This document shows positions 18,011-63,430 of a stretch of 64,000 nucleotides of DNA, one piece after another. The notes under the pieces were generated by a model, which saw only the letters and a program-made list of their open reading frames with translations, was not told the origin of the DNA and did no database searches. How positions within the stretch are numbered: the stretch's first letter is position 1; the number at the start of each line of letters is the position of its first letter. Origin of the DNA: Amoebophrya sp. A120 (Eukaryota; Protista; Dinoflagellata); contig CAJINV010000009.1 in the NCBI GenBank assembly GCA_905178155.1, positions 3,280,768 through 3,344,767 of the forward strand, read 5' to 3'. Made by a program: the position numbers and the translations under genes.

Positions 18011-21000
18011 ATGTCAGCCGCCACGACCAAGGAGCCCAATGGGGCCTTGCAACTGCTTGTTGCCACTGCTTCCGCCTACGGGGTGTACAAAATCTACGCC
18101 TACTACGTCAATAAACAGAGCCATAGAGCAGGAAAAACGCTTTACCTCGACCCCGATGAAACTTCTTACCGGTTTGCTGGAAGGAGGAAGCACAGCAAAG
18201 AGAAGGACCAGCAGCAGGGTAGAAGTAGCCCCACGACGAGGACGAGAGGAATGAATAAGAAATCTTCCAGGTCGAGGGAGAAACAATCTGGGTCTTTTTC
18301 CTCTGATACAAACCCCACTACTACAAGCAGTCCAGAGGACGCAACAACCCCTGCTGCTGACGAAGATCTAACCACCACGAACCAGGAAATCGACGACAAC
18401 GGGGACCCGATCAACGAAAACCAAGTGGATTTGATATAGCAAGAAAAAAGTGTTACAGTTACACATTGTGTTGCAAGACCGGCAACACAGACAACCTTTC
18501 TCATGCAGGAAATGCTTGGGAGCCTCGTTTCCTTCCTGTTTTCCCTTATGATCTTCGCATTACAAGTCTTCTCTGCCACACAGAGAAAATTTGTGATGCA
18601 GAAACTCCAACAAATGTGTAACTGTAACACTTTTTTCTCACGATATTTGATCGGCCAGTTTTATTGGGACAAGCTTTCTGAGAAAGCCCGGCTCTTACTC
18701 GAACAGCAGATGTTGATCCAGGAAAGTTTCATCCCCGGGTTTATCCAGGATGCGAAGGATAGGCTACTATCAAATGTAAAAATGTCTGGGTCTGGAGGAG
18801 TCTAAACTTGTCATGCAGGTTTTCCATGACCCACTAGGTCTGGAATGCGGGACCTAGCATGGGAGACTTTGTGAGGTCTTTGTCATGCCCATCCAGCATG
18901 AGAAACTCCCTGTCCCTCCCAACTTGGTCGGCAGTGGACAGCTTTTGGCACTCATGCAACACAGATTTTTGCATGATTCGGATTTAGCATGACAAGTTGG
19001 CACTCTTCCAGACCCAGACATTTTTGCATTTGATAGCTGCGGGTCCAAGACTACCAGAACGCGAAAAAGGCCGTGTTGGAGAAGAAAAAGTTGGAGAAGA
19101 TGCTGAAAAAATTGGAGTTCCGATATCATTTAGTCTTAACCTGTTTGACCGACTTGGATATCGCGTATTGCAAGCGAAAACTCGCTTTGGACGTGTCCAA
19201 GTCGACCTTGCTCCGGTTGGAACTGGACGAACTCGTGGAGTCGAAAATCGCGGATTGCAGGAGGAAATACTTCGGTGGAAACAATAGAGTCGGAAGCGGG
19301 TTTCTTGTTGGAGGGATGGCTGGATCTTCCGGCTTTTCCAGTCCGAGTTCCAGTAAAGCGAGTACTAGAAATAATTATCAGCTCGCTGCTACGGCTTCCT
19401 CTCTCTACCCCTCTCTGGAGGAACCGCGAAAGCACAATGGGAATCATGTGTTTCAGCAGCAAAGCCCACAGTTTCCGCTTCGTAGTTCCCCGGAGGGCGA
19501 AAATTTCCATTCTGGGCGCTTTCAACAACAGCAACAGCAGCAGCATCACCAGCAGTGGAGTAGCAACTCAACGCGCAATAACATGAGTTTAGTGCTCTCT
19601 GCCGATGACATTCCGAACGAATTTGATGATTTTTTTGTGGATGAAGATGGGTCGTTTTTGCTGGAGCAACCCCGCGCGAAACCCCCGACTCCGGTGAACA
19701 TTGCGTACTATCCGGAAGGAGCAGGAGGTCCTCGTACTTCTAGAGGAGGGCCACTGCGTGGTTCTTTTTTCCGGAGGACAAGAGAAACAACTCCAGCATC
19801 CTTCACTCCAGGAATAAATAACATAAGTGCAGCTGGAAGGCCTTCACCAGGTGCGGGGACGATGTTGACGTCGTCTGTTCATCATGCTGGAACATCAGAC
19901 ACGAAATCTTCGAAGCCAGATGTTTTATTTCATCAACCTCTCGTTGATTTCGACCTTTGCCTTTCCGAATCCGACTCCACTGCTTTGGAAACCACGGAAA
20001 TCTCCACCTCGCTTTACCCGGAACTGGAGCCGCCGAGGTTGTTTTCCTCAAACGGTTTTCTGTTCGGACTGACAGCAACTCGTAGTTCTACTTCATCGGC
20101 GACCACTTGGAACAGATCAAATTCCAGGCCCACCCCAGCACCGGTGAAAAAGGTTCTCTTCGCGGCCCCCGGAGTGACGTATCGGGAAGTGGTTCGGCGG
20201 CCGCGAGAGGCAGAGGACGGGGTAGAGGGGGCCGGAGAAGTAGAAGAGGAGAATAGAAATCCTCCGCTTCCTTTAGGGAAAAAGGCCACAGTGGTGTCGA
20301 AAGCGAAAAGTGTTTTGAAGAAGTCGAGCTCTATCATATCCCACGAAAAAACAGTTTCACTTTGGTGATTTTGCACAATCTGCATCACAAGTTCCTTACT
20401 CATGACACAGAAAATTTGCCATGCGCGCTTCCCGATGGAAAACACGCTTGAAAATGCAATGTGTTGCAGGTGTAGCAAGACAAATATTTCTGTGGTCCAT
20501 TTTCTGCATCACAAGTTCGCAGTGAAGCAGTTTTTTCTTGCGATATATCACGTCGCTGTCCGAAGGGCCTGAATCCTCCGGACGGAGTCAGTCGCCTTTT
20601 GTCGGAAGGAATAGTTGTGGAAGCAGTGGGAGGTGGGGGCAGCAGCGGGGGCGTTGTGCGTCATCTAGTACTTCTTCCCGGGTAGAAGATTGCTCGCCGG
20701 CCGCGATGTTGAACAGCCGCCGAAGCGGGTCCTCTTCGGCGGTAGAAAGAACTACACCGTCTAGAAGTGCACGAGGACGACGAGGAGCGAGTGTGGACGG
20801 GAAAACTGCACCTAATTCCGCCCCATCTTCACCTGCGCAAGAAGACCACGGCCGCGGGAGGAGATCTTCTGTAACTGCGATGAGAGAGCGATTTACTAGC
20901 GGTCGCAGAGTGTCATCTGCTATCCGTTCATCTCTACCAAAGAACAATGCCCCCGTCACTCCTCCTCTGTCTACTTCCCAGAGGTCGAGTTCCACTAGGA

Positions 21001-22278: not shown

Positions 22279-25200
22279 ATGACGATCTCCGAGGAAAGTT
22301 GGCAGCAGCATTGGCATATCAAGTGCAAAAGTATCGTCCTAGTATGAATTGCATTACAAATTGCCTTAGCATTACAAATTAATTTTGTAATGCGGATTTG
22401 CCTTGAGAAACAAAAAGATTTGTAAGGCATAAATGCAATTGTACGAGTGCGATACTTTTGCTGTGGATATGGCAAAACACGTTTTCTAATGCGCAACTGC
22501 TGGCACAACAAGGGCTTACGAACACGACGACGACGACGAACAACAGCAGTACGAACCAGAACCTGACCCACCAGCAGTTTAACCAATATAACACCCAAGA
22601 CCAACAAAACCTCGCAGCGGTACAGCAGTTCCAAAACTATTACGACCAAGCGGCGCAGCAGCAGTACAACCAGCTGGCACAACAGCAGTACTTGTATAAC
22701 CAACTCGCTTGGTACAATACCAATACCAGCAATACGAATACAAATCCTGCCAATACAACGAATAGTACCATGGGCTACTACGACCGCAGTTCCCGTAATG
22801 CCGACATAGGGGATATGGGAGTGTTAGGATCGAAATCGACAAAATCGAAAAACTTGTAATGCACAAAATCGATGCCAGTTAGACCCACAGTTTGTAGTCG
22901 GCGCATGACAAACTTACCACGTCCTGGAAGCGAATCTGTCATGCGGTTTAGGGCAAAATAGCTCCCCTCCGTCATGCGAGCCACCAGCGCAATATGTGAC
23001 ACTTAGCAGGACTACAATCTGCCTCCTTTGCGTCCTCTGCAATAGAGGCACTTTTGCTGTCGCATTTTCTGCATGACAGATTATTTCGACCTTGTCGATT
23101 TCGATCCTGACGCTTCCATAGGAGACAGCCGGCGGTGCATGGGTTTGTTCCTCTCGCTATCCCATGTAAAAACGTCCCCACCCCATAGTCAAGATGGGGA
23201 ATCGACTAGACAAGTCCACGAGTTTTGGCTGTTTTGCATGACAAATTTGGAGTCGCCTTGTAGTGCTGTTTGAGGTCGTTCAGCAGCATCACAGATCTAG
23301 CACATCGCGCTGATTGGCGCATTACAAACTCCAAAACGCGAATAACAAATGCTTCTCATGGGGCTCCGCATGACAAACATTTTGAGCATGCAGATTTGCA
23401 TGACAACTCTGGGGTGGGGACGTTTTTACACAGGATACTCGCGGGGGCGTCCCGGGGAGAAAGATGTGTACACGGGGAAATCGCAGGGCATGAACGGGAG
23501 CTGGGATGACGTTGGGATCTCCCGGCTCGTGGGCGAGTGGCGGAAGGAATTCAAGAAAGTGACGGATAAGTACAGCCACAAGCCCGCGCACCAAAGACCC
23601 ACGTTTCTGATCACCGATTTTCTTTTCGAACAAAACAAAATTGGGGACGAAGGGGCCAAGACGATCTTCGAGTTCCTGTTGGAGTATAAAGTGAAATGCA
23701 ACGTTATCAAGCTGTACAAAAACGACATCGGGGACACCGGGGCGTACTACATCGCGAAATATTTACGGGGCATGGAGGACTACGCGGTCCGCGAGTTGCA
23801 CTTGTCGGACAACTACATGGGGGCGAAGGGAATGGAGGACCTTTTTCAGGCGGTGGTCGGAAACAAAATGTATCCGAAAGAGGAGAGGCGAGGACCGTCG
23901 GTGTCGCTCTGTCCACTGTGGCTGCGCATCGAGAATAACTGTATTCGCATATAAGCATTTTTTTTTGTCATGCGTGCCGCCATGTCCATGTGTTTACATT
24001 TGTTGTTTTGAATTTGATTCGAAGCCTTACTTTGAGACGACCGCATGTTGACCAGAGACAACTGCATCGTCGATTTTTGATTCGTCCAATGATCACTGAA
24101 ATCACAGGCATCACCAACTTTATGGAGAATTTCGCGAAGATGGTACAGGAGGCCACCGACATCCGGACCCGCTTCATCCAGCCCGGCTACTGCAGCGAAA
24201 CGGGAGCGGTGAAACTCTACAAGGACAAGGCCGGGAAGGATGACGACAACTGGAAGGGGTACGTGATCCGGGGTCAGACCGGCCCCGCGTTCGCCCCCTA
24301 CACGTGCGCGGAGATCAACGGCAACTTCCCCGCCCTGTATTGCAATGAGAAATGCTCCCACCCCACACTTGGCACCAGAATTTGTATTGCAAACCTTTCC
24401 AATAGAAACATTTTCCGTCTTGCATATCTCAGCATCACAAATTTTCCATTCTGAATAGCTCGAATTTATTGTGTTGCGAAGGGGCCCAACAGCAGCGGGA
24501 TCTGTTATGCACAAAGCACCTTGCGCATCTAGATTCTGCATCAGAAAGGCTCGCAATCCTTTCACGCAACACAAAAAGGTTTCATTTGGAAACTTTGCAT
24601 GACAAACTTTTGCAAATACGGGGGTGGAGGCATTCTTCATTGTAATACCCTGCACGTCATCTTTGGGCAGAAGCAGCACCTGCATAAGGTCCAGTACACC
24701 CCCAGGCACGCGAAAATGCCCCGGCCGGTAGACGCGTTGTATCAAAATGAAAAATCCCCCCTCCCCATATCAAAGGGGGGATTTGTGTAGCATGATTTGC
24801 GACCACAAATCATATTGCCATGCTAGAAGGCAAAAGGTGCGGACTGTAGAGCTGGCTGGCGTGGGAAGGCCTTGCAACCTCAGCATGACAGGAGGCAGCT
24901 GGCATAGGGAAACAGCATGACAAATTTCCTGCAATTCAGGCAGCAACTGCTTCTCTTGGCCTTCTAGCAATACAAGTCGATTTGTGTACACAAATCCCGC
25001 ATGACAGATTTCCAATTCGATATGGGGTGGGGGGATTTTTCCTTACGATACGTTGCTGGATTTGTTTCCCGCCGGCGTGGCTTCCCCTAACTTCAAACCC
25101 ACGGTTCCATATGAAATGCAAATATGTCTGGGTCTGGAAGAATCCAAACTTGTCATGCAGAATTTCCATGCCCCGTGAGGTCTGGAATGCAGGACCTAGC

Positions 25201-42800: not shown

Positions 42801-45800
42801 TTAGCATGACAAGTTGCTTTGTTCCAGCCCCAGACACTTTTGCATTTGATACGATCGGAACTCCTACGCGTATGGGTACGGAAAGAGCGGCGAGACGGGT
42901 GGGTTGCTGTGGTTCCTGCCGACGCGGCTGTTGGGGATGGGAGATTGGCTTGGTATGATAGAAGAAGCTTTTGCATTTTTTTTTCTTTTCATCTGATTCG
43001 GGGTCTGTTGCTGCTGCTGGTATTGTTCTTTTCTTGTGCCTGGAAGATGATGAAAACACATTCTGTATACTTGAACAGAAGCAATACAAAAAACCAGGCC
43101 TCGGCGCCCTGTACCGCGCTTTGCGGATGTCGACGAGTAGTGCGTCGCGCACGGGACGCGGGCGCATGAATTTGGAAGAGCAGTTTTCGCAGGCGCGGAA
43201 GGAAGATTTGGAAAAAATCAAGCACTGGCTGCGCACCGACCCCCCGGAGCGCGTGATGCTTCTCACCGGGCCGCGGGGCGATGGCAAGCTCGAGGTGATT
43301 CAGGAAATTTTCCGCGACAACTATATCACGAAGAGTAGTGGTACTGGTACGACGGTGGGGCAAGAACATCAAGTGGGAAGTAGAACTACAATCGGGGCAA
43401 CATTATCTGCACCACGCGAGGTGGACCATCAGCCAGTGACACACAGCTCCACGACGGCGTTGCAACCGGTCGTCGAGTATGAATTGCAAAACGTCTGGGT
43501 CGGGAAGGTTGGAACTTGTGATGCTAACTCTGGACTCTAAAAAAATCTGTATTGCATGACCAGCAAGAGGACTCTAGTTTGTGCTACGCGGGGATGGCAT
43601 TTGTCATGCGGATTAGGTATCAGGAAGGGTTCTGAAAATCTGTGATGGTAGGGCATACATCACAAACAATCCTGGGTCATGCAGAACATGCATGACAAGT
43701 CTCAGAATCTTCCAGACCCAGACATTTTTGCATTTGATATCGAGCTGGATTTTTCCCCGTTACTAGCCCGGAACAAGGATGAAAGGTTCCTCCTAAACGC
43801 GCTGTGTCGCATGTTCAACTACTACCCGGCGATGCTGATTTGGGACCAGTCCGCGGCCCTGCTCGACACCGTCGTGCCCGGCGCGAGTCGGATCGCCGGC
43901 GGGTCGGGCGGGGGAATGAACGAACAGGTGAACACGCAACTCTCGCGGATCTTGTCTTTCACGACCGTCGCACTGGCACAGCATAAGGAGGAACGGCGGA
44001 AACGGGAGGAGAAGGGCTTGACGGGTTTGAGTGGAGGTGGTACAACAGCTAGAACATCTGCTGGTGATATTGATCAAGCAAAATCTTCGTCGAACAGCGG
44101 TGATGCCGTTCCCGCCTCCCTGACGCAGAACACGAAGGAAAAGTACCCGCTCTTCGTGATCGAGGGCTTCACGCAGGAGAATTTGGACTCCATACCGAAT
44201 CTCCTGGAACTTCTCATCAAGTGGGCCGCGCTCGTTTCCGAGCGAAAATTAGCCAAAGTCGTTTTTCTCATCGACGGGTCCTGGGGCCACTCGTTTTTCC
44301 AGAAGGTCTTGAAGCACCGCCCGGACTTGCTGGAAGAGAAAGTCTGGGGCGACGTGCCGATGGAAATGGTCCGGGAGTGGCTCGGGGAGAGGTTTTTGGT
44401 CGATCTAGCGGAGTTGGAAGGACTGAAAACAGCAAATAATGCTGACGAAGTTGATCATAAAACTAGCGACGCACTGGTGTCCTGGGCGACGAAGAGAAGT
44501 ACTACTACAACTAGCGCTGCTACCGGTGATGTTGCAGCCGGCTCAACACCAACATCTTCGGAAGTTCCAACGACCACTAGTACGACAGCCCAGGAGCTTA
44601 TACTCGGTGAGAAAAATCGACTGAAGACGCAAGAAGTTTTCCCGCCAGCCGTGTCTACGGGTGAGGCAGCGACTGACTATGGAGGAATAAACCTTCTGGA
44701 AGTTGTAGCCGGTGGATCGTCAACAACATCCTCTTCCTCTAAAGTACAAACACTTGATGTGGCTGGAGAAAAATCAGGACAACAAGTCCTTTCCCCGCCG
44801 CCGTCCCTTCTCCACGTGTGTTCCCCGCAGGAGAAGGTGTTTATGATCAACCGCATCTTGAAGACCCTCGGGGGCCGCTTGTCAGACTTGGAGATTCTCC
44901 AGTCGAAAATTGAGAACGACAACATGATATGAAATGCAAATATGTCCGGGTCTGGACGGTTAGAACTTGTCATGCCAGATCTTGATCACTGAAAAATCTG
45001 TGTTGCATGAACTCCAAATAAAGCTGCCCACTTCTTGGTAGGCAGAAGGCGGATTTCTCATGCGGCATAGGCATGAGGAAGGTCTTGCAAAACCTGTCAT
45101 GCTTCTGTGTGCATTCCAGACCATGCACGTGGTCCGCGAGATGCATGACAAACCTTGCACTCTTCCAGAGGACCCAGACATATTTGCATTTGATACATGA
45201 CGCCGTCGGAAGCTCTGGCGGAAATGATCGAGACCACGACCACAACGGTCCGCTCTCTCCTGGTCCGCGACGAGAAAGAGGCGCTGTCCGTATCCTGAGC
45301 AAAAACGTCTCCACCCCAGAGTTGTCATGCAGATTTGCAATGACAGGAACATTTGCAATGCGCATCTACATGAGAAGCATTTCCAATCGTGTTTTGGAAT
45401 TTGTAATGCTGTAAACAGGATGAGGAGATGGGTTTGTGATGCGACTGCCCTTGCTAACCTACACTACACTACAACGACGAACTTGTCATGCATGGCTTCC
45501 AAAACTCTTGGATTTCTCTTGCAGAGTTCGCAACTTGACTATGGGGTAGGGACGTTTTTACTCAGGATAGTCCGCGAACCAGCTTTGGTCCCGGAACCAG
45601 TTGTGGAAAGCGATTGAGATCTTGGCGCTCGGGGAGGCGAAAGCGGAAAGAGCAACTGGTAGTGCTGTGAAAGGTGGACAAGCCGCGGCGCACAAAAATA
45701 CCTCCTACGTCACCTACGATGCGTTTCTCGATTACGTGCTACGTGGGGACGAGCGCATCATGCGGCACATGCTCGCGTCGCAATTGATAACCACGAAAAT

Positions 45801-48589: not shown

Positions 48590-51500
48590 ATGCCCGATAT
48601 TGTTCCCAGCGCGTCCTCCTCCTCGAAGGCTGTGAAGCCGAAGGAGCAGTTCATAGGGACGACATCATCCGCAAGTGCTGGCTCGGCCTCGAAGCAGAAG
48701 AAAGGGCTGAAACCCGCTGCCAGCAAGTCCGTTCAATCACGAGATGACAAGAAGGCTCGACGTCACCAGCAGGAGGATGACAAAGGGAAGAAGAGCACGA
48801 AAAATTATAGACCCCCGCCGGCGCCGCGGCTGGACGAAACAAAATCAAAAGTAAAGGTCCAGCCTTCTTCGCAACCAAACAAGAACTCTCCCGCCCCTCG
48901 ACTGCCGACGACCAAGCCGCTCCTCCCACCTTGTCTCGAGGAGTTGCGCACCACAAAAAACCACTTGCAACCGGTGGACGCCGATCGAATCGACGATCCA
49001 AATCTGAAGCTCGACGCGGCCGGGGTGCCGGTGGTGCTGAAAAGCTTGAGGGAGACGAGGAGCAACGACAAAAATCACAATCAGGGTAGGTCATCTAATA
49101 TTTGCGGTACTAGTTCTGCGGATAATTCATCTACTGCGAACAAATTTTTATCCGCTAAGCAACGGCGGCACCTCACCGTCTTGAGCAAAAATCTAGGGCC
49201 GTTGGACCACGATCGAAGGCGGCTGATCAAGCAGTGGACCGCGGTTCTGTTCCCGCTGGTAGAGGTGGACGAAGGGAACATAAAGAAGCAGAATGATTCG
49301 CATGCACAACAAGCCACGTCCACCTTGTTAACAACTGCGTCGTCCGACGTGAAGAATGCAGCGGGTGGGGGACAGCGACAGCCGTCTGATGCTCCTCTAC
49401 TTCCGGATGAGTGTAGTTCTTCCACGAGAGGAAAAGAAGTTGGTGGCAAGAAACCAGAGGTAGGAACGACGTCTTCATCTAGCGGAATAAATGGAAAAGT
49501 AAATGAAGTTCTGTTACAAGAGCCAGTAGATTGTGCATCGCTTGAAACCAAGAAGAACAAGGACGACCTGCCTAGCACAATAAAAAATCGCGCGAAACAC
49601 GAACTAATATCGCGGTGCCTGCAGTTGCACCCCGACGACTTTGGCGTGGAGGAAATCGAAGCGCTCGAAGAGTTACGGAAAGCCATGCTCAAGAAAAGAA
49701 AAGCCCGCGCGCAGGTGTTGCAGAGCTTATTGCACGACGGGCGGGGGTTGGGGATGGGGTTGCACTTGCAGAACGAGAACCAGAAACAGGATGAAAAACC
49801 TCCGCAGAAGGTGATGAACGACACTGGGGCATCAAATAAAACTACTACATCGAGTCGCACACCAGAAGAGTCCTGTGCAACGCCCGCAAACCTGTTTTCC
49901 CAAACGCAGCATTTCTTTGCGGACGGATCGCAGACGCAGACCGGGGACGAGATCATGGAAGGCCCACGACCTGGTGTGGAAAAAATGACTGCTACTTCGG
50001 GTCAAAAAACAGTGGCGGGAGATGAAAAGCAAGGACAGGTGGGTGAAGTAGATGGCTGCGGGAACAACATTACGCCCGGATTTTTTGCGTTTCCGTTTTC
50101 ATCTTCAACACCTTCACAAACACCCGCGTTTAATAATACTCTTACGCCAGGTTACAACTACGGCACGAGCCGCTTGCTGCCGTTTCAAAACAAGAGGCGG
50201 GAGGAGATATTGGCGGAGGAAGAGAGAAATAAACGGTTGAAGAGGAAATACCTGATATCGAAAGGAAAAATCCCCCCTCCCCATATCAAAACGGAACTTC
50301 TGATGCTGGAGTTGTGTACACAAATCAGCTTTGTATTGCAGCAAGGCATAATTGCGGCTAGACCCCCAGTCTGCGTTTGGGTGTAGTTGTTCAGCATTGC
50401 AAACGGCTGCCCTTTAGGCGCAACAGCGTGGCAAATCGTTTCCTTAACGGGGCAAAGGCTTGTGCCCTTGTTTTCTTGCAAGACAAATGTGATTTGTGGC
50501 CACAAATCAGCAACGCAAATCTTCGGAAACATACAGCGTCAATATGGGCAGGGGGAGTTTTTCCGTTCAATACGTGAAGCAGCTGAAAGTGATTTACGAA
50601 AACGAAATCCTGAAAAAAACGTCAGAGCTCCGGAAGGCGCAGGTGCTTTTCAGCAAGCAGGAGGGAAAGTTGCGGGAAATCCAAGCAGAGAAATTGGAGT
50701 TGGAGATGGGGACGAACTACTGCAGTGGAGCGACCTGCGGAGCTAATGTGTTAGAAAAGCAACTGTTCAAGAGCCATCCGACCGATTTCACCCACCTCTC
50801 CGGCGCCCGACAAGTTGCCGACTACCTTGAGTTTCTTGTTTCCGAGCGCCGGTTCTGGCTGGGAATTTCGGAAAACTTGGAAAAAGTGGAGAAGATGTTG
50901 AAGGAAGAGACAAGAAGAAGAAGTTGTGGGACGGCCACTTCTACGCTGGATAAACAGAGTTCATCCCTGGTGGAGAAGAAATCCGTGGATTCAGCAGCAA
51001 ACGAAGACAGACTCGTGGCGCGAAACGATAGCGAAACGAGGAAAAATCAGTCGTCGCTTGCAGTACCAAATGAAGAAGCAAGTGACGACGAAGTAGAGAA
51101 CGCTGACAACTACAATAGGACCACGAGCACGGCGACTTCCAGCAGACAGCTTGTGGCTGCAGAGAGGTTTTTTCACGAGGAGATCCAGGAAAAGATTCTT
51201 TCTCGTCGGCGCGAGCAACAAGCCAGTCTTTTTCCTAATAGTAAAAGCAACAAACGGAAGCGGAAAACAAACTTGTCCCTCGTGAAATCCGGCGAAGAAC
51301 CTGGAGGTGCAAGCTCTTCGAAGAAAAGGAAGATAAAAGAAGACCAGAACCACGACTCTAAGAACTCAGGCGGACGGGCGGAAACGACGGATCACTGTGA
51401 AGATATGGCAATGGGAAATACTTTTTTCAGAAAACTTTTTTTTTTCGCCGCATATGATCTCACGGCACTCCATAGGCATACAAGCGGGCACGCGCAGAAT

Positions 51501-54500
51501 AGATCTGTCTAAGCGAGTAGACGGCTCTTGGTACTTAGCTAGCTACCTGTGACGCAAAAGAGATGCGGCCTCCGGAGTAGCCGCGGCCATGGATTCGGTC
51601 CTTGGCGCTCTGGCCTCAAGGTACTTGACACACAATGCCCCCACCGCGGCCTTTGTGTATGGGGCGGAGGCTCAGGGTAAGTCAGCGAAATTCTGAATGG
51701 CTCGCTTAGACGCGGCTGTCTGAAACGCGCGTGGCCTCTAGGCGTCGCTCGCCCCAGCTTTCGAAGTTCCCCAATAGAAAAATACAGATCAGGCTTAGAG
51801 CTTCGGCGTCTTTGGGTTTGTTCCGGGCCAGGCTGTACAGCTCCCCGTCTTGGCCGAATTCGCGCTGTCATTGTTCCAGACGCATTCTTGCAAAAGCCGC
51901 AAACTTGCGGAAACACAAAGCGCGGCCGGGCCCCCCCTTGAGGGGGGGGTTTGGGGGACCCCCCTTCGTGGAGATATCAATGGGGAGTAGCTCTCGGCAA
52001 AGGCCCCGAAAGGGGGGGGTTTGGGGGACCCCTTGGGGGGACCCCCGAGGACTTCGACTTGCAGCCGAGGAGGGAACTCTGCTAGCCTCCTGGCAAAACA
52101 GGCTGGGGCGAAGAACCGCACCCCGAGACCCAGGCCCGGAGGAGCGCCGCGGCCCTGGCATCACTGTCGTCAGCGCTGCCGCGTATGGATTTGAATTATT
52201 TTGAAGCTGCGCGCGGGCGCCTGTTTCTCCTGCTGGGGCGTGGGCCTGCTGTTGGCCCCAACCCGCAGCACGTCCGGCCTTGGGCTGCCCGCGTATTGCT
52301 TTCATTAAAGCGAAAGCACTGCAGGGGCTGGCCTTCCGACATCTACGCCGGCCACGCCGGACCCAAAGCCATGACGCAGTGAGCCCCGAGTGCGGTAATC
52401 TTCTTGCCGTCAGGCAAGCGAGCTCAGGATACCACTGCAGGCGCTGTTGCCACGCAGTCGATTTTTGCCGGCAAAAAGCCATCTACTTACCGCGACGGGT
52501 AAGTTATATGTGGCAAAAAAAAAGAGTTTTCAGCAAAAAGTATTTCCCATTGCCATAGAAGATATAGGCGGACGGGCGGAAACGACGGATCACTGTGAAG
52601 ATTATCCTCCTGTAGTAGAAGAGCCAGGAGAAGGAGACCTCCAAGCGGATAGTACTGGTCCAGTGAAAAATCAAGGAGATGATCATGAGGATCCCAATTG
52701 CAGCAAAGGTAAAAACACGTCGCCAGCAGGAGTTTCTTCCGCCCAAGCCGACCTCCTCGCCCAGCCGACCCCCGCGCCGGTGTTTTTTTCAGAAGAAGCC
52801 GCCGCTTGGCTGCAGAAGAATTTCGCCGTGGACGATAGTTTGTGGGTGTACGCGAGAACGTACATTTTGCTTGAGTCGGAACATAGAAATAGCAAGGAGG
52901 ACAGCGATTTGACAACATCACCGAAGGACTTTCTTGCCGAAAAAGCGTTTCTCTACCTGAAGTGCGCGGTTTTTAAGCAGCTGGTCTTACTGCAGAGAGA
53001 GATTGAAACGAGTTACGATCAGGTTTTCGCGATTGCGACTGGAACATGTGAGGAAAAAGGGGAGAAGCATGTTGAACTGGTAGCTCAACATGGGGACAGG
53101 ACGAGCAAGATCAGTACATGTACATCAACTGCAGTTCCGGGTGGAACTTCTACAACTGTCCCGGACCACCCCAAGAACACGAACACGAGCAGTGGCCGCG
53201 GGCACTCAATCTCGTTCACTCAGCTGGTCAACAAGAAGAAAATCAACATCATTTCCCAGCTGGAGACCTACAATGAACGAATCGCCCGGGCGCACACCGA
53301 GCTGCAATCCATAGAAGCGGAGATAGTCGAGAAAACCGCGGCCATCGGGGATTGCAAGGAGGAATTCGATATCCTGTGCAAAAGTATCGTATTTTTATTG
53401 CAATCATGCATTACAAATTTATTTTTTTCTTATGGTAAAGCCTACCGCATTGCAAATTCAATTTCTCATGCTGATGAAATTTGTAATGCATTTATACGAG
53501 TGCGATATTTTAATTTTTGCAATGCATATTCGAGGTCGCAGTTTGCGAGGTTTTCGGCGCGGATCAGATAGCCGCCGGCGCCGAACCCGGGAGCGCGTCC
53601 GCCGTTTCTGTGCGCAGCGCGGCCGCGGCGTCGGTGCTGTCGGCGGCGCAGGCAACGCTTTTTGTTCCAAACGGTTTTTACAGCGGTCGTGGTGGTCGTA
53701 TTGGAGGCGGTGGTGCAGCAGCGGGGCGGGGGTCTTCTGCACAGACCCCGGCACAAGTTGTGCAACATCCACACGTGGCCGCGCTGTGGACAAAAGCAGA
53801 CTCGACTCTGGAACAGGCTTGGGTGGCGGTTATGTCCCTATCAACTGCAAAAATGTCTGGGTCTGGAAGGTTGACACTTGTGATGCGCATTTCAGAGCAC
53901 AGAAAAATCTCTCATGCATAGGCAGCAAAAGTTGCCCATTTTCTGTCACCAAAGTCAGGGATTTGTCATGCGGATTCGGAACTACTGCCCAATCGTGACC
54001 ATGCCCGTAGGAACTACTTTAATACTGTCTCTACGACTTTTGACTTCATTCATAACCTTCAATTGTATTCCTACCTAACTTGTATTTTTTGTTTTTTCTC
54101 TGTACGATTGGCCAAAGCGCCACCGGGACAGCCTGCCCGTAGACCACCGATGTCATGCGGATTCGGCATTGCGAACGCTTCTCGAAACCTGTGATGCTAG
54201 AGCTTGCATGCCAGACCTTCTGTGTCATGCAAAAGCAGCATGAGTCTTCCAGACCCAGACACTTTTTCATTTGATAGTCCCTGTGCGAACGGAGTCCAGC
54301 TTGGCGGATGGCCTTCAAGGAGCAACAGAATATCGCAAGAAAGAAACTGTGTAAGTGTAAATCTGTGATGCAGAACACGCAGCAGAGTTACACCTGTCAT
54401 GCCAGACAGCCATGAAGTCCTCTTTTCATGTGTGTTTTCCCTTACCAACCATGCATGACAGGTTTTCTCTGTCATGTACGGCAAATTTGTGATGCTGTTT

Positions 54501-60400: not shown

Positions 60401-60830
60401 CCGCGGCTGCGAAGAGTAATCGCACTGATCAGAGCCGCAGAAGAAGTACTTCCTTCACTGTGCAAACCAATTTTGTCAACTCCTGGAAATGAAAGAGAAA
60501 AAAAGCATCAGAGAACAAGTGCCACCACTGCTTCAGCAGCGGCGTTTTGCTTGGTGGTCCTGCTACAAAGTGCCTATAGCTTGTGCAGCTCTTTTTATGC
60601 GCTTTATTCCGATGTTCTACTTCTAGTCGCGTCACCAGGACGTCGAGATGTTGTCTTCTAATATGATCTACTGCCCCCGACCGCAGAAGTGGTCGTGGAG
60701 AGCGAAAGATCATCAGCTGGTCGACGGTCGTTCATGATGATACCTGGCAAAATGTACCACCTGACCCGCCGCTGAGTCGTCGCCAACGCCGATTCGCGGG
60801 AATATAAATGGGAAGCCAGCACTGAGCCCC

Positions 60831-61340
60831 ATGTCAACCGCTCCAAACCCTTCGAACGAAGAGAAGCCCGCACTATTAAAGTTAAAGCAGGAATACTGTG
60901 GCACTTTGAACTACCTTGCCACTAGCACGCGCCTTGACATCGTAGTAGCATTAAAATTCTGTGCAAAAGCAAAAGTGAACGAAGAAACGCTGACCGCGTT
61001 GAAGCGTATCTTTCGTTACTTGCGTACGCGCCGCGTTCTTGTCTACAGGAACAAGCAAGAAATCTTGAAAGGCAAGCTCACTCTTAGCGTGTGGACCGAT
61101 AGCGACTTTGGTGCGCAGCCTGGTCGTCAGTCAATTTCGGGCACTGTCGTAAATGTCTGTGGTTGTCCGATCTATTGGCGCGCGCTCACGCAGTCCACGA
61201 TCGCGACAAGTGTGACCGAAGCAGAAATTTGCTCTATGACCGATGGGGCTAAGACTGTGCTTAGATTCTATTACGTGATGAACACATTGCGCGGCTGGCT
61301 TGAGAATTATTTTGCTATATCCACCATTCTATTGGACTAG
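60831..61340 (+). mobile_element. Ty1/copia LTR-retrotransposon fragment (RT C-terminus + RNase H)
   Basis: GTLNYLATSTRLDI, LKRIFRYL, WTDSDFG, SISG and PIYWRALTQSTIATSVTEAE are copia hallmarks. Confidence 0.88.
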
Positions 61341-61764
61341 GAGCCGGGGAGGTTATTGCGCGGTAATCGTCTAGTGCTCCAAGATCCAATGTGAATGATC
61401 CAAGTATACGATGACACAGGATGGAAATCAGATGAGTGATCATGTGCATAAGATTACACCTAATCGTATGATGCACACAGAGACAGTATAAGAAACTGTA
61501 TGAGAAGCTAAGTGGTTTGTAATGCATGTGATGCAACACAACCCTACAGAGACCAGCCTTAATGGCTAAAGAATAAGAAAAGAAATTTCCGTGACACACA
61601 AGCAAAGCTACCCACGCAAGGTACCAAATAGGCATTACAGATTGTTCTACTTGGATCGTTTCTTGTTTGGGTCTTGGTCTTCGCACGTTCACATGGAGAG
61701 CGAAAGATCATCAGCTGGTCGACGGTCGTTTCTTTTCGTTCTGGCTTCGACAAACAGGAACAGA

Positions 61765-62039
61765 GATGCTGGATTTGTGTACACAAATCAAGTCTGTCTT
61801 GCAGTAGAGGACTGCAAGCCCATACTAAGCCTAAGTAGAAGGGTTTTGCCATAGGCGCGGAGCATGGCAAATGTATACTCTGCAGGCCCCATAGCATCAG
61901 AAACCGCCTGCATAATGCGGCGGAGTCGCTGGATTGGCCTTCTTGCAATACAGAGACGATTTGTGTCCACAAATCAGCATCACAAATTTTCAGAAGTGTC
62001 CCTTTTTGGTATGGGGAGGGGGGATTTTTCCTTTCGATA
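61765..62039. mobile_element. Family B introner lacking its left TIR
   Basis: Right TIR atggggaggggggatttttcctttcgata is intact; the interior matches the 50256 element. Confidence 0.8.
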
Positions 62040-62294: not shown

Positions 62295-62565
62295 TATGCA
62301 ATGCAAATATCGATCTGGGTCTGGAAAGGTTGAACTACCTGTATTGCGTGTTTCGCACCATATCTGAAAAATCTGTATTGCATAAGCAGCAAGGAATAAA
62401 GCGCCACACCTTCGTCACGCAAAAGCGCAGTTTGTAATGTGTTCTGCGTACTATGAAAAAGCGTTTGAAAAATTTGTCATGCTGCACTGCACTGAAAGGC
62501 ACAGTCAATCAGGACAATTCAGCATTACAAGTTCTTTCCAGACCCAGACATATTTTCGATGCATA
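62295..62565. mobile_element. Introner family A, DR gtgaa
   Basis: tatgcaatgcaaatatcgatctgggtctggaa ... ttccagacccagacatattttcgatgcata. Confidence 0.85.
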
Positions 62566-63007
62566 GTGAACGGAGAGCGAAAGATCATCAGCTGGTCGAC
62601 GGTCGTTTCTTTTCGTTCTGGCTTCAACAAACAAGAACAGAGCAGCAATTTCGTGAACCATTACCTACAACTTTGCCACATGGATTCGTTTTCAACGGTT
62701 TGTCGTTTGTCGTCATCCCATTTAAAATTCGCCGTGTTCATCTTCTTGTCCTCGAGTCTGAAAAAGAGCGAGAAGTTGCATGTAGTCGTACTGGAGCGCA
62801 ACATGAGATTACACTGTAGTTGTATTTGAATAAAAATTGAAAAATGAAACAAGCAAAGTGATAGTTTGTTGATGTGGCGTGGAGAGATGAGTCTGCTACT
62901 GTTTCATCATCTACAGTTATCTGTAGCACTGCTCGTCCCTGCTGCACAAGTTGTGCACGGCTCTTTTCCGTATCGTTTTCCTCGTGATCGTGATGGTGAT
63001 TTATGGA

Positions 63008-63430
63008 AAATTTGAAAAGATGCTCCTTTAGCATCTTTTCAAATTTTGAAAACCACAGACGAGTAAGCGGACCCCGTCTTCTGCGGCTTCAAAAATTGAA
63101 AAGATGCTCCTTCAGCATCTTTTCAAATTTTGAAAAGCCCAGAAGAGCAGGCGACCCTCCTCTTTTGCGCCTTTTGAAATTCGAAAAGATGTTCCTTCAG
63201 CATCTTTTCAAATCCTGGAAACCACAGAAGAGTAAATTGCTCGGGTCTCTTGTGGCTTCGTTATGGAAAAGATGCTCCTTCAGCATCTTTTCAAATTTTG
63301 CAGGCCAAAGGCCACGCGCTTCAGATTTGAAAAGATGCTGAGAGGGCATCTTTTCAAATCTCAAGAACCACAGGAGAGCACAGCAGCTTTTTCGCCTGTT
63401 GGTTTTCAGATTTGAAAAGATGCGCCCCGA
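63008..63430. repeat. Tandem array of palindromes ttgaaaagatgct-N5-agcatcttttcaa, ~85-bp period
   Basis: Copies at about 63011, 63096, 63180, 63265, 63325 and a degenerate one at 63411. Confidence 0.9.

Follow-up and report, generated by a model that had tools for sequence, protein, structure and literature searches.

A long inverted-repeat element beside a tandem exon duplication in Amoebophrya sp. A120, and its likely removal as a non-canonical intron

The window, that is, the whole 64-kb stretch of Amoebophrya sp. A120 DNA analysed here, carries on its + strand two exon pieces that are separated by a transposon-like element. The upstream piece (50575–51398, in the frame of ORF 50493–51512) and the downstream piece (52558–53363, in the frame of ORF 52399–53571) both have open frames and are covered by contigs from four RNA-like runs, X3–X6, the upstream one with 0–1 other letters. 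Between them lies a 1,154-bp element (51404–52557, without assigned strand) that starts with TAT and ends with ATA. Its terminal inverted repeat (TIR) arms, at 51404–51455 and 52506–52557, are each 52 nt long and 90% complementary; an inverted-repeat search returned them, and they pair in the MFE fold as well as in the centroid fold. A 5-bp target-site duplication, GAAGA, flanks the element at 51399–51403 and 52558–52562. These ends and direct repeats can be read directly, and they stand as an earlier sequence-only reading of this DNA had given them. A Pfam scan of 18 long ORFs in the window assigned no family to the host exons, and homologue searches with the left exon (longer proteins) and the right exon found none.

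We class the 1,154-bp element as a non-autonomous TIR transposon of a MITE-like but long form: it has TIRs and a target-site duplication, no coding capacity was found in it, and at least one other copy exists. None of its seven interior ORFs (86–204 aa) reached the Pfam cut-off, the best score being 18.7 bits for Zn_ribbon_RPB9 against a cut-off of 25.2, and the longest had no homologue among proteins of 112–357 aa. A length of 1,154 bp is too short to hold a transposase gene as well as the ends. Because its interior has no transposase-like ORF, the element is not an autonomous parent, and the earlier proposal that it is the best lead to one is not supported. A single weak Rfam match within 51000–53000 (16.8 bits, gathering score 37) was dismissed.

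The exact 18-nt ends of the element occur at only these two places in the 64-kb window; a further match, at 24338, has three mismatches (chance expectation 0.05). BLASTN within the window gave no second copy; the only matches were the element against itself, its TIRs, and a 22-nt repeat in its interior. In X1, a DNA-like run, variant contigs cross the element interior, with other letters in 13 rows. One X1 contig derives from a different genomic copy and enters another flank exactly behind 52557, which confirms the right boundary. Therefore, at least one further genomic copy of the element exists. Matches to the 18-nt end at 42 metagenome loci were set aside as chance matches, since none extends beyond 19–22 nt.

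Elements with the same ends are common in the window. Requiring at least 12 of 16 matching end positions and a target repeat matching at 4–5 of 5 bases, we counted 25 TAT...ATA elements in 64 kb, versus 0–1 in five shuffles. The other 24 span 153–438 bp (median 267 bp) and have GC contents of 0.29–0.50; the 1,154-bp element, with a GC content of 0.58, is about 4.3 times longer than the local median, in line with its initial description as GC-rich and about four times longer. At positions 11–15, an A is present in 41–46 of the 50 ends of the 25 elements, which gives a motif of TAT, seven variable bases, and an A-run. This motif fits the A120 inverted-repeat motif of section 11 in PMC7789003 (TAT, seven less conserved bases, then at least three As). 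The 1,154-bp element shares the TAT, but its A-run begins at position 13, not 11, at both ends. When each element was removed together with one repeat, 17 of 25 junctions could be read through in a + strand frame, compared to 9 of 25 when the element alone was removed; this comparison is a weak test.

Adjoining the 1,154-bp element is an exact direct repeat of 37 bp, found by a direct-repeat search. The left copy (51368–51404, + strand), in which the upstream exon piece ends and of which 51369–51404 encode GGRAETTDHCED, and the right copy (52566–52602, + strand), which an X1 contig links to the right end of the element, are identical at 37 of 37 positions. They are the sole 100% pair among 11 direct-repeat families in the window, and the exact exon duplication reported earlier is thereby confirmed. 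Between the right GAAGA and the right copy is a 3-nt spacer, TAT (52563–52565, no strand assigned), equal to the terminal triplet of the element. Once the element is removed, what remains is a tandem duplication with a period of 39 nt (37 identical bases plus AT, or 36 plus the TAT spacer), and ATA at 52564–52566 encodes an isoleucine between the two peptide copies in the mRNA frame.

The position of the duplication and its TAT spacer suggest a link to the element. We see a roughly even chance that the 39-bp duplication arose as a by-product when the DNA broke at the right end of the element. During the repair, the right-flank end would prime on the left GAAGAT copy, 31 nt of the left flank would be copied, and end-joining with 2–3 extra bases would complete the product. 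Templated insertions at repaired double-strand breaks, like transposon footprints, consist of a flank copy and a few extra bases beside a transposon end. The duplication resembles them in its short direct flank copy and in the extra bases at the junction, but the present element has not left its site, and ordinary footprints (a 5-mer, then TAT, ATA, TA, or TATA, then the same 5-mer) number 0–4 in the window, not above shuffles. Against the repair scenario, it requires a mis-primed synthesis step and non-templated bases, and no TSD-TAT/ATA-TSD footprint was observed anywhere in the window. The narrower proposal, that a transposase made the break and that the duplication is its repair scar, is a tentative one, which we think rather unlikely to be right.

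An origin independent of the element has a modest probability. The 39-bp tandem duplication would then stem from slippage or from end-joining, in an exon that is of low complexity and evolves fast, and the element would have inserted later at the junction by chance. Other short in-frame tandem repeats do occur in the coding-like sequence of the window (22 TRF rows), and a simple GAAGA insertion into pre-duplicated sequence gives the present DNA exactly. However, the target repeat sits exactly at the boundary between the two repeat copies, and the spacer equals the element end, a match expected by chance in 1 of 64 cases. A flank repeat longer than 9 nt was found at only 1 of the 25 elements, and the copies are still fully identical, so the duplication is recent. 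Because the homologue searches with the exons and the longest interior ORF were empty, no ortholog is at hand from which to read the ancestral state of this site. Three further routes were considered and rejected, as they fail to give the exact junctions or require more steps. A 36-bp target duplication from uncoordinated integration of the two ends leaves the eight bases GAAGATAT unexplained, sister-chromatid transposition would give a different 5-bp repeat beside the right copy, and rolling-circle or circle-junction copying requires three template switches.

We then turn to the RNA-like runs. X3–X6, all from one study (P2), are classed as 'RNA?' by an inferred label and are taken here to be RNA; their evidence consists of contigs, not reads. 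One contig each in X3, X4, and X5 (depths 4.5, 7.6, and 2.7, respectively) joins 51398 to 52558, skipping 1,159 nt with eight ambiguous bases. Each of these contigs is 62 nt long and covers 51375–51398 and 52558–52595 with 0 other letters; the shorter side is just 24 nt in every case, as contigs break at the 37-nt repeat. In X6, a 14-nt loose end before 52558 equals 51385–51398, i.e., the junction common to X3–X5. The missing segment (51399–52557, + strand) is thus the element plus one GAAGA. The 8-mer GAAGATAT stands at both junctions, and the joint therefore has nine equivalent placements, up to 51407–52565, none of which places GT-AG, GC-AG, or AT-AC at the cut positions. The joined form keeps both 37-bp copies, resulting in an in-frame tandem duplication of 13 codons. 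This is the introner-type removal that the sequence-only reading had envisaged, with 1,159 nt lost and the peptide left duplicated: X3, X4, and X5 contain that joined form, and the X6 loose end agrees with it. As to the element interior, X4–X6 give no cover and one X3 contig (51436–51669, eight other letters) probably derives from another copy; missing interior cover in X3–X6 is not counted as evidence. X9, X10, and X11, raw-read RNA runs listed under the same species, have 0 reads on 50000–54000 and are uninformative on expression or splicing.

The same pattern recurs on both sides of the two exon pieces. A joint in X3 connects 50252 to 50575, and loose ends in X4 and X6 hold upstream-exon sequence; another X3 joint connects 53363 to 53528. 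The corresponding gaps of 322 and 164 nt, at 50253–50574 and 53364–53527 on the + strand, are likewise TIR elements with 5-bp repeats: 50256–50572 with the direct repeat CCTGA/CGTGA, and 53370–53528 with the repeat TTCGA. Taken together, the three joints have 20 equivalent cut positions, none with GT-AG, GC-AG, or AT-AC, and we regard both gaps as neighbouring non-canonical introns.

Our preferred reading is that the 1,154-bp element is likely removed from the pre-mRNA together with one GAAGA, 1,159 nt in total, as a non-canonical intron, with pairing of its 52-nt ends as the predicted guide. Such pairing of the inverted ends would guide the cut, a role that is proposed rather than demonstrated in PMC7789003. 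Removal at the RNA level is supported by X1, which lacks the 51398-to-52558 joint and bridges both junctions of the element with its flanks.

A different splice, a GC-AG intron at 51370–52567 (1,198 nt), would excise the duplicate along with the element and return the protein to its single-copy state. We consider it improbable, whether as the main or as an alternative form. GC and AG do stand at these two sites, and a join there gives an open, in-frame product. As claimed from the sequence, both removals preserve the frame (1,159 and 1,198 nt each leave a remainder of 1 modulo 3, and both joined frames are open), the two-exon piece encoding 529 aa via the GC-AG product versus 542 aa via the observed joint. 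Furthermore, about a third of introns are canonical in the described lineage (PMC7789003). Against this, the donor is GC, not GT, no other feature identifies it as a splice site, and the sole joined form seen keeps both copies. Because the 37-nt repeat is longer than 30, the 31-mer contigs are blind to the GC-AG product, every word of which is also in the observed product. Depth offers a weak hint: separate 37-nt contigs equal to the repeat are present in X4 and X5, and the ratio of repeat to joint depth (15.9 versus 7.6 in X4, and 6.4 versus 2.7 in X5) is about 2:1, which fits two copies in nearly all molecules, crude as contig depths are.

It is more doubtful still that the element is absent at the DNA level in the X3–X6 material, through either an insertion-free strain or programmed DNA elimination; we give this a very low probability. 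The 'RNA?' label is a guess, and the precise loss of the element and one target repeat is equally what one would see at an empty site or after IES-like excision. However, X3 lacks all three elements in a 4-kb stretch while the listed exon contigs carry 0–3 other letters, and the published account of such introns rests on RNA-seq (PMC7789003). No contig of X1 represents an empty site, and the depth of its junction contigs is similar to that of the flanks: 51375–51501 (depth 37.7) bridges the left element/flank junction and 52458–52595 (depth 41.7) the right one, each with 0 other letters, next to flank contigs at 46.6 and 39.7. The X1 bin 52064–52157 is without cover and was not used as evidence.

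The assembly at 51404–52557 is supported by the same X1 contigs, although X1 is possibly the data behind the assembly and hence not fully independent. That the duplication or the placement of the element is an assembly artefact is barely credible: 37-nt repeats do fragment short-read graphs, and the locus is not covered end to end by any one contig, but X1 contigs bridge both junctions at single-copy-like depth, and the order in the RNA-like joint contigs is repeat-AT-repeat, a tandem arrangement that only a two-copy template yields.

The preferred reading, removal as a non-canonical intron, places the element in a known class. Farhat et al. 2021 (PMC7789003) described introner elements and non-canonical introns in Amoebophrya sp. 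A120 and A25, with inverted repeats of 8–20 nt and direct repeats of 3–5 nt. Over 60% of the introns are non-canonical, the genes are unidirectional, and intron sizes of 40–1000 bp were analysed. The 1,154-bp element matches these introner elements, and its kind is thus already known. It has end inverted repeats, a boundary direct repeat within 3–5 nt (GAAGA), a loss from RNA-like contigs without GT-AG or other conserved splice dinucleotides, no internal transposase, a predicted exon-joining hairpin, and the TAT of the A120-type end motif, and it lies among unidirectional genes with many copies per gene (PMC7789003). It differs in its length (1,154 bp versus 40–1000 bp), its arms (52 nt versus 8–20), its GC content, and the 2-nt displacement of its A-run; the adjoining 39-bp exon duplication has no counterpart in the passages of PMC7789003 consulted here. 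The earlier view of the element as an intervening sequence that derives from a transposon and lies within a coding exon is supported, whereas the phrase 'intron birth in progress' was overstated, because the element resembles the other 24 of its type and the kind was described before (PMC7789003).

Similar elements are known elsewhere. Introners of Micromonas, Aureococcus, Polarella, and others are the subject of Gozashti et al. 2022 (PMC9860276) and Gozashti et al. 2025 (PMC12130899); the 2025 paper also lists Amoebophrya A120 as carrying diverse introners of the TIR type. Like them, the 1,154-bp element is DNA-transposon-derived, has TIRs and target-site duplications, and belongs to a type that multiplies within genes (PMC12130899). 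The introners of Micromonas and the other lineages, however, use canonical splice sites, partly supplied by the element or the target repeat (PMC7789003), whereas 0 of 9 placements are canonical here. The nonconventional introns of euglenids resemble the present element in their non-canonical borders, TIR-like end pairing, and TSD-like junction repeats; they can reach several kb in length and are suspected to stem from MITEs (PMC11282704). They belong to another lineage, and their consensus pairing of CAG/CTG at +4 to +6 and −8 to −6 is absent here; their excision as circular RNA has been shown (PMC11282704).

If the element is removed as we propose, a 1.15-kb member, beyond the size range analysed in PMC7789003, is still removed to the base. 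Intron recognition would therefore not depend on short length, which fits a recognition of the paired ends. The adjoining duplication illustrates a way for such elements to alter a protein, as the joined form carries an in-frame repeat of 13 residues. A repair-scar origin of the duplication, if correct, would also bear on how these elements move. Should the break have been made by a transposase, the scar would physically attest to cutting of hairpin introns at their ends in the DNA, either now or in the recent past, a step that PMC7789003 doubted for such introns, and introner activity would directly create in-frame coding repeats, here 13 residues in the mRNA.

The exon read from the sequence ends with the left copy of an exact 37-nt repeat (51368-51404), which includes the left target repeat GAAGA (5 bp, 51399-51403). 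There follow an element of 1,154 bp with the termini TAT...ATA (51404-52557), the right target repeat GAAGA (5 bp, 52558-52562), a 3-nt spacer TAT, and the right copy of the same 37-nt string (52566-52602), after which the exon resumes. The arms of the element are 52 nt each and 90% complementary. Its exact 18-nt end occurs at two sites in the window, both of them termini, with one extra match carrying three mismatches at 24338 (chance expectation 0.05). Two + strand open frames, 50493..51512 and 52399..53571, meet the element and are offset by one base; hence, the frame is restored by removing either 1,159 or 1,198 nt. This anatomy confirms the element and exact repeat described in the sequence-only reading.

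We scanned the 64 kb for pairs of TAT...ATA ends that matched at 12 or more of 16 end positions and were flanked by a repeat agreeing at 4-5 of 5 positions. The scan returned 25 elements, as opposed to 1, 0, 1, 0, and 0 in five shuffles; they lie within 12410-62565, mostly in + strand open frames. The other 24 elements measure 153-438 bp (median 267) with a GC content of 0.29-0.50, against 1,154 bp and 0.58 for the present one. The 50 ends consist of TAT, seven variable bases, and an A-run, with an A at positions 11-15 in 41-46 of the 50; the TAT was built into the scan, but the A-run was not imposed. In the present element, the A-run begins at position 13. Several types of near-identical ends occur repeatedly, such as TATCAAATG[TC]AAAAATGTCT at 18768, 28669, and 46998. 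In a weak test using 240-nt windows, taking out the element and one repeat left a + strand frame open over the junction for 17 of 25 elements; taking out the element by itself did so for 9 of 25.

Just one of the 25 elements has a repeat of more than 9 nt in its flanks. Of the 11 direct-repeat families in the window, none but the 37-nt pair has copies that are 100% identical. Since its two copies are still identical, the duplication is recent. The target repeat of the element sits exactly where the two copies meet, and the spacer TAT is the terminal triplet of the element. Together, boundary position, spacer, and copy identity suggest a link between the duplication and the element. We tentatively infer a break-repair scenario as the one that would give every base in the fewest steps: a break at the right end of the element, priming of the right-flank end (GAAGAT...) on the left GAAGAT with 31 nt of left flank being copied, lengthening of the element side through GAAGAT, and joining of the ends with two extra bases added. 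Independent support for this scenario did not emerge: ordinary excision footprints were absent from the window, and protein searches with the host exons found no orthologue. An older tandem duplication, in which the element landed by chance, is less likely given the same three features.

We then examined contigs from coded sequencing runs across the locus. The library kind of X1 and X2 is unlabelled (0.79 and 0.77 of sampled words present), and X1 is DNA-like; X3-X6 come from one study, contain 0.39-0.54 of sampled words, and are RNA-like, a label that is a guess. Runs X9-X11, which are raw RNA reads under the same species label, had 0 reads on 50000-54000 and provide no test of removal. X3 contigs contain three joints in 4 kb, 50252 to 50575 (322 nt skipped), 51398 to 52558 (1,159 nt skipped), and 53363 to 53528 (164 nt skipped); in every case, the skipped stretch is made up of a TIR element and one copy of its direct repeat. 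These joints can be placed at 20 equivalent cut positions (4 + 9 + 7), and GT-AG, GC-AG, or AT-AC occurs at none of them. X4 and X5 contain the 1,159-nt joint too, each in a 62-nt contig that connects 51375-51398 to 52558-52595 with 0 mismatches, and X6 has a 14-nt loose end ahead of 52558 that is identical to 51385-51398. As contigs end at the 37-nt repeat, the shorter side of every joint contig measures just 24 nt. The joint is absent from X1 contigs, two of which, 51375-51501 (depth 37.7) and 52458-52595 (depth 41.7), span both element/flank junctions with 0 mismatches and adjoin flank contigs of depth 46.6 and 39.7. Hence, the site is filled in the DNA, and the joined form is limited to the runs taken to be RNA. 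The joined form reads repeat-AT-repeat, so two repeat copies are truly in the template; the contig evidence argues against an assembly artefact, although X1 may itself be source data of the assembly. Introner-type removal with the duplicated peptide kept in the message, one of the two outcomes named in the sequence-only reading, is what the 1,159-nt joint displays in RNA-like contigs. Farther along, an X3 contig over 53528-53839 continues for 200 nt beyond its matched part, and the match ends exactly where a 438-bp TIR element (53839-54276, target repeat GTCCC) starts; this element is probably skipped too, the mapped stretch having reached 54000.

The 1,159-nt joint yields a two-exon piece of 542 aa with no stop, in which GGRAETTDHCED is followed by one Ile and a second GGRAETTDHCED. 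A transcript that retained the intron would run into a stop at about 51510. The candidate GC-AG intron (51370-52567), which would remove 1,198 nt, leave one repeat copy, and give a predicted 529-aa product with a single peptide copy, is unevidenced: its product would be invisible in contigs built from 31-letter words, as the 37-nt repeat exceeds 30 nt and all words of that product also occur in the product of the 1,159-nt removal. The roughly 2:1 depth of the repeat contig over the joint contig (15.9 versus 7.6 in X4; 6.4 versus 2.7 in X5), crude as contig depths are, hints at two copies per molecule.

The element had also been put forward as a lead to the autonomous parent transposon, which its coding capacity does not support. 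None of the 7 interior ORFs scanned (86-204 aa) had a Pfam match at cut-off, and a search of proteins 112-357 aa long gave no homologue of the longest. An Rfam search gave no credible match, no second copy was found in the window, and a metagenome scan with the 18-mer end returned 42 chance matches, all of 22 nt or less. Variant contigs cover the interior in X1, and another X1 contig exits the element exactly at 52557 into a different flank; there is therefore at least one further copy, and this exit point confirms the right boundary. We conclude that the element is non-autonomous, belongs to what seems to be a small family, and does not represent the parent. Within the element, a G/C-run module (51927-52045) contains two 29-nt copies, at 51934 and 52004, that are 90% alike. 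Summed X1 contig depth is far higher there (434.6 in bin 51876-51969), with loose ends on both sides, and the module seems to be a separately repeated genomic sequence.

Elsewhere in the window, a direct repeat of 36-71 nt has three copies (60697-60732, 61695-61765, and 62572-62642), the last two 97% identical. The second adjoins a left-truncated element (about 61766-62039), and the third begins 1 nt past the target repeat of the element at 62295-62565. This repeat may be another TE-associated local duplication, built differently from that at 51368/52566. A 191-aa ORF (60765-61340, +) may be similar to the RNase H end of a Ty1/copia polyprotein; a Pfam search yielded no match in favour of this. 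An 84-nt tandem repeat (63007-63405) has 3.4 copies with 78% matches and a short palindrome in every unit. Among 18 long ORFs tested against Pfam, the sole clear domain was RNA12 (E 1.4e-13; 43652-44932, +). LRR_6 (23346-23954) passed on its whole-protein score, although none of the individual stretches exceeded the threshold, and the remaining long + strand ORFs matched no family, in line with reported fast protein evolution.

In the predicted RNA fold, the 52-nt arms pair in the MFE structure as well as in the centroid, which sets the GAAGA copies next to each other; such pairing would juxtapose the two ends for removal. The same hairpin architecture is proposed for Amoebophrya introner elements by Farhat et al. 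2021 (PMC7789003), who describe inverted repeats of 8-20 nt and direct repeats of 3-5 nt that overlap the boundaries; over 60% of the introns there are non-canonical, and an internal transposase is lacking. For strain A120, they give inverted-repeat motifs that open with TAT, followed by seven bases of lower conservation and three or more As. Their intron analysis was confined to 40-1000 bp, so a 1,159-nt intron falls outside its set. Related cases are the diverse TIR introners of A120, some with Copia/Gypsy-like ORFs between TIRs (PMC12130899), and the nonconventional introns of euglenids, which PMC11282704 reviews. The locus is likely a transposon-made intron excised in the "introner" manner, which partly supports the initial interpretation. 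Introns of its kind are already described; this one stands out by its unusual length and by the curious duplication in its flank.
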